DNA from: a virus | Strand: one strand, 5' to 3' | Length of the DNA stretch: 64,000 nucleotides | Virus record (IMG/VR): IMGVR_UViG_3300027625_000002 | Shown here: positions 35,192-35,266 of the stretch, one piece after another | How the letters are laid out: the number at the start of each line of letters is the position of its first letter | How positions within the stretch are numbered: position 1 is the stretch's first letter | Made by a program: the position numbers and the translations under genes | Notes under the pieces: model-generated | Told to the model about the DNA's origin: nothing | What the model saw: the letters and a program-made list of their open reading frames with translations, nothing else | Database searches by the model: none

Positions 35192-35266
35192 TGGTAACAG
35201 GGGAAGGATTCGCACCTCCGACCTCCAGGTTATGAGCCTGGCGAGCTACTCCTGCTCTACCCTGCG
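35192..35266 (-). tRNA. tRNA-Met(CAT)-like (could be initiator-like or Ile2/lysidine), non-canonical
   Basis: Cloverleaf drawn by hand: D-arm GAGC/GCTC, anticodon loop CTCATAA, T-loop TGCGAAT, encoded CCA; C1xU72 mismatch and G55; 28 nt upstream of ssrA. Confidence 0.5.

Follow-up and report, generated by a model that had tools for sequence, protein, structure and literature searches.

A putative phage initiator tRNA(Met) with a compensated A18/G55 elbow, encoded beside a tmRNA gene

Introduction

Phage-encoded tRNA-Met genes are already known, as are initiator transfer RNAs (tRNAs) in which A:U stands in for the first of the anticodon-stem G:C pairs (au/GC/GC). The element considered here is a tRNA gene with the anticodon CAU, located upstream of a transfer-messenger RNA (tmRNA) gene in a 64,000-nucleotide stretch of viral DNA (IMG/VR record IMGVR_UViG_3300027625_000002; hereafter the window, meaning the whole 64-kb stretch that was analysed). 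Judging from its sequence, this gene probably encodes a functional phage initiator-type tRNA(Met), a reading to which we assign a probability of approx. 0.6. Its elbow is unusual in that A18 and G55 occupy the places of two bases regarded as near-universal.

A mismatch at 1:72 is the defining feature of initiators, and G2:C71 is part of the formyltransferase determinant (PMC5389676). According to the same work, au/GC/GC stems occur naturally in all alpha-proteobacterial initiators and in some mycoplasmas; E. coli can live on an initiator of this kind at the cost of a modest defect, and rhizobial ribosomes deal with it better. With regard to the elbow, reviews of the elbow itself (PMC4810234) and of T-loops (PMC7912444) describe pseudouridine 55 (Ψ55) and G18 as universally conserved in tRNA, and the latter makes no mention of G55. 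Residue 18 is inserted between residues 57 and 58 and makes a hydrogen bond with the 'universally conserved' Ψ55, and the elbow has G19:C56 as its exposed face (PMC4810234). The T-loops of other RNAs follow the pattern UGNRA, with an intercalator that is almost exclusively adenosine, whereas the tRNA form is UUCRA (bioRxiv 10.1101/2022.12.26.521914). No paper describing A18/G55 tRNAs was found in the open-access literature, where only tRNA-Pyl and riboswitch T-loops proved relevant.

The tRNA gene and its fold

ARAGORN, run on the whole window, reports only two RNA genes, one tmRNA and one tRNA; the latter, a tRNA-Met(cat) on the minus strand, is the sole tRNA of the window (coordinates are given in Table 1). 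Rfam agrees, with a full-length match to model positions 1-71 of RF00005 (53.9 bits against a gathering score of 29; E=8.6e-9). A sequence-only reading had proposed a non-canonical tRNA(CAU) at this place without giving a strand, and the positive call by both finders bears it out. In both the sequence and the fold, C1 stands unpaired opposite U72, and the T-loop UGCGAAU with G55, the anticodon loop CUCAUAA and the encoded CCA are all as that reading described them. Read 5' to 3' by structural element, the RNA is CGCAGGG UA GAGC AGGAGUA GCUC G CCAGG CUCAUAA CCUGG AGGUC GGAGG UGCGAAU CCUUC CCCUGUU A CCA, which includes G2·U71, C3:G70, A4:U69, G5:C68, A11:U24 and A73. Of these features, G2·U71 and A11:U24 had been overlooked, as had the A at the G18 position. 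The minimum-free-energy fold and the centroid fold are both the cloverleaf with 1:72 open; the folding-energy z-score of -0.38 does not discriminate.

The unusual bases are not an assembly artefact, because a 640-nt segment covering both the tRNA and the tmRNA shows 100% identity in 18 separately assembled contigs (loci L008-L015 and L018-L027), which come from Joint Genome Institute (JGI) metagenomes and one NCBI assembly. These assemblies offer zero variation for covariation analysis, and homologues of the neighbouring 141-aa gene at 52-83% identity were used for that purpose instead. Two Logan contigs of the same phage (L016 and L017) break inside the tRNA at about position 47, which may be caused by k-mers common to other tRNAs of the sample. 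An attP or integration-site fragment is ruled out, as the tRNA and the tmRNA are both full length.

Relation to initiator, elongator and isoleucine tRNAs

A tRNA with the anticodon CAU can be an initiator, an elongator tRNA-Met or tRNA-Ile2. An alignment with the E. coli K-12 references places the window tRNA closest to the annotated initiator metZ (75.3% identity), ahead of the elongator metT (57.1%) and the Ile2 gene ileX (53.9%). When compared by BLAST with 5,426 complete E. coli genomes, it matches a median of four places per genome, these places not having been mapped to genes. Four is also the number of E. coli initiator genes when metZ, metW and metV, which the K-12 annotation lists as initiators, are counted together with metY, a further initiator tRNA gene.

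The alternative that the gene supplies an elongator tRNA-Met, supplementing the decoding of internal AUG codons with an open 1:72 end that is tolerated or incidental, draws on the fact that tRNA-Met is among the commonest phage tRNAs and that records annotate such genes simply as tRNA-Met. This explanation appears quite unlikely, not only because of the low identity with metT and the number of places matched in E. coli but also because of the acceptor end and the D-stem. EF-Tu binding requires a Watson-Crick 1:72 pair, and the work of RajBhandary is said to assign A11:U24 to the D-stem of initiators and Y11:R24 to that of elongators. The window tRNA has neither elongator mark, since it carries C1×U72 and A11:U24; its D-stem, GAGC/GCUC, is that of metZ, whereas metT and ileX have C11:G24. 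Moreover, 1:72 is mismatched in all three orthologues described below (C·U, C·U and U·U) and in most of the wider class, among the matches listed. Thus the earlier view of the open 1:72 end as a pointer to an initiator is supported, and the CAU anticodon, the mismatched 1:72, A11:U24 and the greater similarity to initiators all point in the same direction. Among the formyltransferase determinants, C3:G70 is present, and 2:71 is a G·U wobble rather than G:C.

A second possibility raised from the sequence alone was tRNA-Ile2, in which TilS would turn C34 into lysidine so that the tRNA reads AUA. The CAU loop with A37 and A38 is indeed the same as in E. coli ileX, and phage Ile2 genes annotated as Met do occur. 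However, TilS reads C4:G69 and C5:G68 in E. coli or G3:C70 and C4:G69 in Burkholderia, and the Burkholderia enzyme is nearly inactive on C3:G70 (PMC11947777); the window pairs C3:G70, A4:U69 and G5:C68 fit neither identity set. Given also that ileX has a paired G1:C72 and C11:G24, that its identity with the window tRNA is only 54%, and that an open 1:72 end is an initiator feature, this candidate was rejected as very improbable.

The A18/G55 elbow

The two elbow bases G18 and U55 (Ψ55) are replaced in the window tRNA by A18 and G55; the Rfam alignment sets an A under the consensus G18 and a G under G19, and G19:C56 and U54·A58 are kept. Far from being a defect, the G55 noted earlier forms one half of a swap of a tertiary pair, from G18·U55 to A18·G55, in which A18 compensates for it. 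The loop UGCGA together with A18 therefore appears to be the generic T-loop solution set in a tRNA, with U54·A58 and G19:C56 intact.

This elbow recurs widely. A search pattern with a fixed CAU loop, G30-G31/C39-C40, G53/C61 and the T-loop U-G-C-R-A-A-U gives one match in the window and none in 100 shuffles of it, at least 120 matches in IMG/VR and at least 120 in species-representative bacterial genomes. The class is defined here by a U54-G55-C56 T-loop and A-G (not G-G) at D-loop positions 18-19, a definition that includes the window tRNA (AGGAGUA with UGCGAAU). It comprises 236 listed tRNAs, and the class counts that follow hold among the matches listed. The D-loop is usually 7 nt long, A-G-N-A-G-N-A, with A at 18 and G19 kept; eight viral and two genomic members have a D-loop identical to that of the window tRNA. 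Initiator features predominate, with 1:72 mostly mismatched (C·A, U·U, A·A, C·U or C·C) and with G2:C71 in approx. 92%, C3:G70 in approx. 90%, A11:U24 in approx. 75% and A73 in approx. 86%, and pair 29:41 is variable.

For comparison, a control scan was made in which the class pattern was changed only to U55, and the sequences were dereplicated. Among phage initiator-type tRNAs, 'AG' accompanies G55 in 85 of 89 sequences, and 'GG' accompanies U55 in 105 of 115. The same rule extends beyond initiators. The loci contain 756 unique non-CAU tRNAs, 671 of which could be classed as G or U at 55 and AG or GG at 18-19; those with G55 have 'AG' in 60 cases and 'GG' in two (60/62), and those with U55 have 'AG' once and 'GG' 609 times (609/610), the counts covering 13 isotypes. 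In most loci, the alternative elbow is nonetheless limited to the initiator-like tRNA: the other tRNAs have a UUC T-loop in 830 of 1006 cases, and UUC is likewise what all the commonest T-loops among the 88 other CAU tRNAs show. Of 68 G55 initiator-type sequences, 14 are closest to a U55 sequence and six more are tied; this partial intermixing of G55 and U55 sequences suggests repeated switches. As a separate observation, nine contigs carry tRNA arrays, namely the Verrucomicrobia contigs of metagenome-assembled genomes L148, L152, L156, L171, L183, L243 and L262 and the viral contigs L057 and L141; most isotypes in these arrays (Leu, Gln, Asn, Arg, Glu, Gly and others) have A18/G55 or other non-UUC T-loops (AGC, CGC).

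Patescibacteria account for about half of the genomic class matches. Their 56 listed A18/G55 tRNAs have G2:C71 in 55, C3:G70 in all 56, A11:U24 in 55 and a mismatched 1:72 in 52 (C·U in 13), and 27 have A29:U41. Approximately 59 Patescibacteria loci among L154-L267 show the D-loop AGUAGUA and the T-loop UGCRAAU, often with U29:A41 or A29:U41. Around the 56 listed tRNAs, the elbow is canonical in 62 of 65 neighbouring tRNAs and in 37 of 38 other CAU tRNAs. The initiator marks of these cellular genes suggest, as far as sequence allows, that an A18/G55 initiator can serve a cell.

The class is also found in cultured phages, namely Campylobacter phages CP81/CPX, the T4-like Erwinia phage IT22 and Brevundimonas phage Kikimora, as well as in Phage CBW1004C-Prop1. 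The last of these provides the closest catalogued tRNA, with 84% identity, C1·U72 and the anticodon stem of the window tRNA. Phages Bxz1, GodonK, CBB and XbC2 have canonical initiator-like tRNAs. All of the cultured-phage cases obey the 18/55 rule, and all are annotated as plain tRNA-Met or are unannotated.

It is possible, though rather unlikely in our view, that A18·G55 is a distinct, selected elbow. According to this proposal, it would appear to be native to Patescibacteria, in their initiator-type tRNA, and to have been adopted repeatedly by phage tRNAs, above all initiators, where it might free the tRNA from, or hide it from, T-loop enzymes (TruB, TrmA, TrmH), elbow-reading host factors or defence nucleases; the window tRNA would then represent a recent switch within its lineage.

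Orthologues and the tRNA slot

Through homologues of the 141-aa neighbour, with identities of 52-83%, nine related loci were reached, six of which (L401-L405 and L408) have a tmRNA at the matching place. In two of them, the upstream tRNA(CAU) is recognised by Rfam (61.2 bits in L404 and 57.9 bits in L405). Both have in common with the window tRNA the T-stem GGAGG/CCUUC, G2·U71, U72 and A73, and L405 shares the whole acceptor stem. L405 is a 600,485-bp ENA contig, which, to judge from its size, may belong to a very large phage genome or to a host chromosome. The elbow of both tRNAs is canonical, G18/U55, with the D-loop AGAGGYA and the T-loop UUCGAAU. Because these orthologues share the T-stem and the 3' side of the acceptor and yet have G18/U55, the switch is placed inside the window lineage, and the window tRNA gene, orthologous in other respects, has the compensated A18/G55 state.

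Across the window, L404 and L405, all 60 of 60 stem cells pair, and changes on both sides are seen in five pairs (4:69, 27:43, 28:42, 29:41 and 30:40), compared with 0-1 in slid controls. These compensatory changes indicate that the cloverleaf is under purifying selection.

The arrangement of a tRNA followed by a tmRNA is found again in five related loci (L401, L403-L405 and L408), in agreement with the earlier suggestion that the two genes form a unit. The spacer between them is nearly base-for-base the same in L401, L403 and L408. The T-loop of the L408 sequence is UGCGACU, and it was considered as a second clean A18/G55 tRNA; it was dropped on account of its aberrant cloverleaf and the lack of an Rfam hit.

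Weighing the initiator reading

Several observations weigh against a functional initiator. The three consecutive G:C pairs 29:41, 30:40 and 31:39 are not complete, as 29:41 is A:U, and in L405 (2022-2096) the anticodon stem UUGCG/CGCAA has C30:G40 instead of G30:C40. G2·U71 replaces G2:C71, a change with few counterparts in the class (4 of 236). The slot itself is unstable: L401 (1978-2050), L403 (1976-2047) and L408 (661-731) contain CAU tRNA-like sequences of aberrant form, in which the D-loop has 4 nt and stems are shifted or extended; ARAGORN calls these sequences, and the slot gives no Rfam tRNA match even at E<=1. L402 has no tRNA in the slot and keeps the tmRNA. A slot that is good, aberrant or absent while the tmRNA is kept implies that the tRNA is dispensable or fast-evolving. 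Furthermore, neither a sigma-70 promoter nor an intrinsic terminator consensus was found within or around the tRNA-tmRNA unit, and the 18/55 association among phage initiator-type tRNAs (Fisher p≈1.6e-44) is not corrected for phylogeny.

The broken G:C run, the L405 stem and the loss of the formylation determinant G2:C71 would also suit an elongator. Nevertheless, A29:U41 is a documented natural exception, which lowers strict membership among initiators and not function. The sequence-only reading, which had the three G:C pairs lacking from the stem, needs correction in that G30:C40 and G31:C39 are retained; the initiator/elongator hybrid that it offered is unneeded, as the stem is the natural au/GC/GC variant (PMC5389676) and the other initiator marks are present. 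As for G2·U71, it is conserved within the window lineage (L404 and L405).

The slot variation in L401, L402, L403 and L408, where the tmRNA is conserved and so is the spacer, bears more directly on the idea of a decaying or non-translational gene, i.e., a relic, a decoy for a host nuclease or enzyme directed at tRNA, or a handle for processing of the tmRNA precursor. An Rfam score below those of L404 and L405, an acceptor end weakened by G2·U71 and C1×U72, and the presence on the phage of RtcB and an RNA ligase, which fit a conflict over tRNA, could be taken in the same sense. This idea is unlikely in light of the complete cloverleaf with all stem pairs intact and the five compensated pairs among orthologues. 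Additionally, the two odd bases form a compensated pair found in hundreds of other tRNAs, the CCA is templated, the sequence is the same in 18 assemblies, and the same elbow occurs on Patescibacteria tRNAs with near-complete initiator hallmarks. The pattern of the slot looks like rapid turnover or cassette replacement. An initiator-type tRNA(Met) thus remains the preferred reading, with G2·U71, the au/GC/GC stem and the variable slot keeping confidence from rising above the level stated.

The tmRNA and genomic surroundings

The features of the region are collected in Table 1. The 168-aa gene, the tRNA, the tmRNA and the 141-aa gene are all co-directional, and the stop codon of the 168-aa gene lies 62 nt before the tRNA. 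The tmRNA has a canonical T-loop, UUCGAUU, and its 3' end is ACAA, with no encoded CCA; in the five tmRNA copies with a displayed 3' end, CCA is templated in none (ends ACAA, ACUA or ACCC). Tag variants in the related loci are ...PAIAA, ANDNAIAPAAQAA and ANDNAFAPAAQAA. ARAGORN sets the bounds of the window tmRNA at 34789-35160; it does not call the tmRNA of L405, which scores 75 bits with Rfam. A further pair of this kind was seen on a 25-kb contig binned as Gammaproteobacteria (L153, 4167-4645), the only RNA genes of which are a tmRNA (tag ANTVAVPQYAYAMAHA) and an A18/G55 CAU tRNA; here, the tRNA lies 50 nt downstream of the tmRNA, i.e., the window pair in reverse order.

Table 1. Features of the tRNA-tmRNA region and other genes of the window named in the text
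Feature	Position	Strand	Description and basis
141-aa gene	34334..34759	-	No known family; synteny anchor; starts 27 nt after tmRNA
tmRNA	34787..35160	-	One-piece; tag ANDNAFAPALAA; ARAGORN; Rfam RF00023, 88.2 bits
tRNA-tmRNA spacer	35161..35191	-	A/U-rich, 31 nt, AGCUUAGAAUUUCUGGAAACAUGAACAAUUC; sequence
tRNA(CAU), putative initiator type	35192..35266	-	75 nt; CCA encoded at 35192-35194; ARAGORN and Rfam RF00005
C1×U72 mismatch and G2·U71 wobble	U72 35196, U71 35197, G2 35265, C1 35266	-	Sequence
T-loop	35208..35214	-	U54 G55 C56 G57 A58 A59 U60; G55 = 35213
Anticodon CAU	35232..35234	-	Positions 34-36; ARAGORN, gene position 33; ATG on + strand
D-loop	35247..35253	-	AGGAGUA, 7 nt; A18 = 35250, G19 = 35249
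168-aa gene	35329..35835	-	Upstream neighbour; C-terminal S24 (LexA/CI-like) peptidase domain; weak DUF7249 match
RNA ligase	47540-48385	-	phrog_14301; within ~8 kb with the phosphoribosyltransferase-like protein and RtcB
870-aa ORF	48757-51369	-	Major-vault-protein Shoulder (1.5e-29) and Vault_3 repeats
Phosphoribosyltransferase-like protein	52720-53517	-	
RtcB	54120-55544	-	

The window has 62% G+C and approx. 115 short open reading frames (ORFs), 88 of which are on the minus strand. Nearly all of the 70 ORFs that were scanned are without a known family. The families recognised include RtcB, RNA ligase, DNA methylase, phosphoribosyltransferase, AAA ATPase, major-vault-protein domains and phage-only PHROGs; no structural genes were seen inside the window among these 70 of approx. 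115 ORFs. The RNA ligase, the phosphoribosyltransferase-like protein and RtcB may form an RNA-repair module thematically related to the tRNA/tmRNA pair. The 870-aa ORF with vault domains is unusual for a phage-like element.

No close relatives of the window were found among catalogued phages or in IMG/VR. When the 2.5-kb region was compared with catalogued phages by blastn and megablast, the tRNA alone matched; in IMG/VR, an exact 40-mer of the tRNA has no match and the upstream S24-like protein has no relative. We read the window as a non-structural region of a large uncultured phage from peat soil. The match to CBW1004C-Prop1 (84%) and a tmRNA tag starting with ANDN give a faint hint of an alpha-proteobacterial host.

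Discussion

The analysis establishes the gene, its fold, its initiator-type sequence, the covariation of 18 with 55, the compensatory changes and the synteny, from which expression, charging, formylation, use in the P site and a benefit to the phage are inferred. It is most likely that the tRNA is transcribed together with the tmRNA in the co-directional minus-strand array. Host RNase P and 3' processing enzymes would then excise it, its CCA being templated, and host MetRS would charge it by way of the CAU anticodon and A73. The open C1×U72 end with C3:G70 would make it a substrate of the host formyltransferase (Fmt) and a poor ligand of EF-Tu, and G30:C40, G31:C39 and A11:U24 would direct it to the 30S P site. 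In the elbow, A18·G55 would take over from G18·Ψ55 by means of a UGCRA T-loop into which an adenosine intercalates, as in the T-loops of riboswitches, and with G19:C56 and U54·A58 intact, the L-shape and the outer stacking face should be kept. With G55 in place, Ψ55 cannot be made. The phage would likely gain a private supply of initiator tRNA beside its own tmRNA, RtcB and RNA ligase, by which translation could be kept running during infection. The class tRNA is often the only tRNA of the stretch examined (48 of 116 viral loci, and the window), which suggests private initiator supply and argues against compensation of codon usage, and possession of a tmRNA, RtcB and an RNA ligase would suit a phage that invests in sustained translation.

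Taken alone, the window adds modestly to what is known, as it provides one more phage initiator-type tRNA, the necessity of which is uncertain given that relatives have lost or scrambled theirs. The correlated A18/G55 elbow, a recurrent structural variant that has apparently gone unremarked and is seen here on an ordinary type of gene with canonical orthologues for comparison, is of wider interest. To the conservation of G18 and Ψ55 it offers a large and coherent exception in which both partners of a tertiary pair have changed together, and which spans initiator-type tRNAs of many phages and Patescibacteria as well as entire tRNA arrays on certain contigs of phages and Verrucomicrobia. The exception, a clean covariation in nature between the partners of a tertiary contact, is readily explained by structure, and it predicts that tRNAs of this class are unable to carry Ψ55. 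The routine label 'tRNA-Met' hides phage-encoded initiator tRNAs, and the occurrence of the class in the cultured phages CP81/CPX, IT22 and Kikimora makes the idea directly testable.

Comparison with known systems

The E. coli initiators metZ, metW, metV and metY have the same CUCAUAA loop as the window tRNA and share with it the mismatched 1:72, C3:G70, the D-stem, G26, G30:C40, G31:C39, the variable loop AGGUC, A73 and the templated CCA. Relative to metZ, the window tRNA has U72 instead of A72, G2·U71 instead of G2:C71, A4:U69 instead of G4:C69, A29:U41 instead of G29:C41, a 7-nt D-loop with A18 instead of a 9-nt one with G18, G55 instead of U55/Ψ55, and G57 instead of A57. The alpha-proteobacterial and mycoplasmal au/GC/GC initiators agree with it in the replacement of the first anticodon-stem G:C by A:U and in the retention of the other two pairs, whereas the acceptor end described for them is canonical and no unusual elbow is reported (PMC5389676).

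Closer still are the A18/G55 tRNA-Met genes of cultured phages, which combine CAU, a 1:72 mismatch (A·A, A·C, C·U and C·U), an 'AG' D-loop and a UGC T-loop; the CCAGG/CCUGG stem of CBW1004C-Prop1 is that of the window. They differ from the window tRNA in that identity is 76-84%, some have C11:G24, U11:A24 or another discriminator base, and none adjoins a tmRNA in the stretches examined. The CAU tRNAs of Patescibacteria have the same elbow (AGUAGUA with UGCRAAU) and a mismatched 1:72, but are cellular genes with G2:C71 and G4:C69, and each may be the sole initiator of its genome.

Outside ordinary tRNAs, the riboswitch T-loop motif resembles the window elbow, where UGCGA is a form of UGNRA and an adenosine serves as the intercalating residue 18; the motif is characterised from flavin mononucleotide (FMN) and cobalamin riboswitches and not as a tRNA elbow, and A18·G55 is known from sequence. 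Finally, tRNA-Pyl is likewise a natural tRNA without G18G19 and T-Ψ-C, with G55 in D. hafniense. However, its core is compacted (a 5-nt D-loop, a 6-bp anticodon stem and a 3-nt variable loop) and lacks the canonical contact between D-loop and T-loop, whereas the window tRNA has a standard cloverleaf in which G19:C56 is kept.

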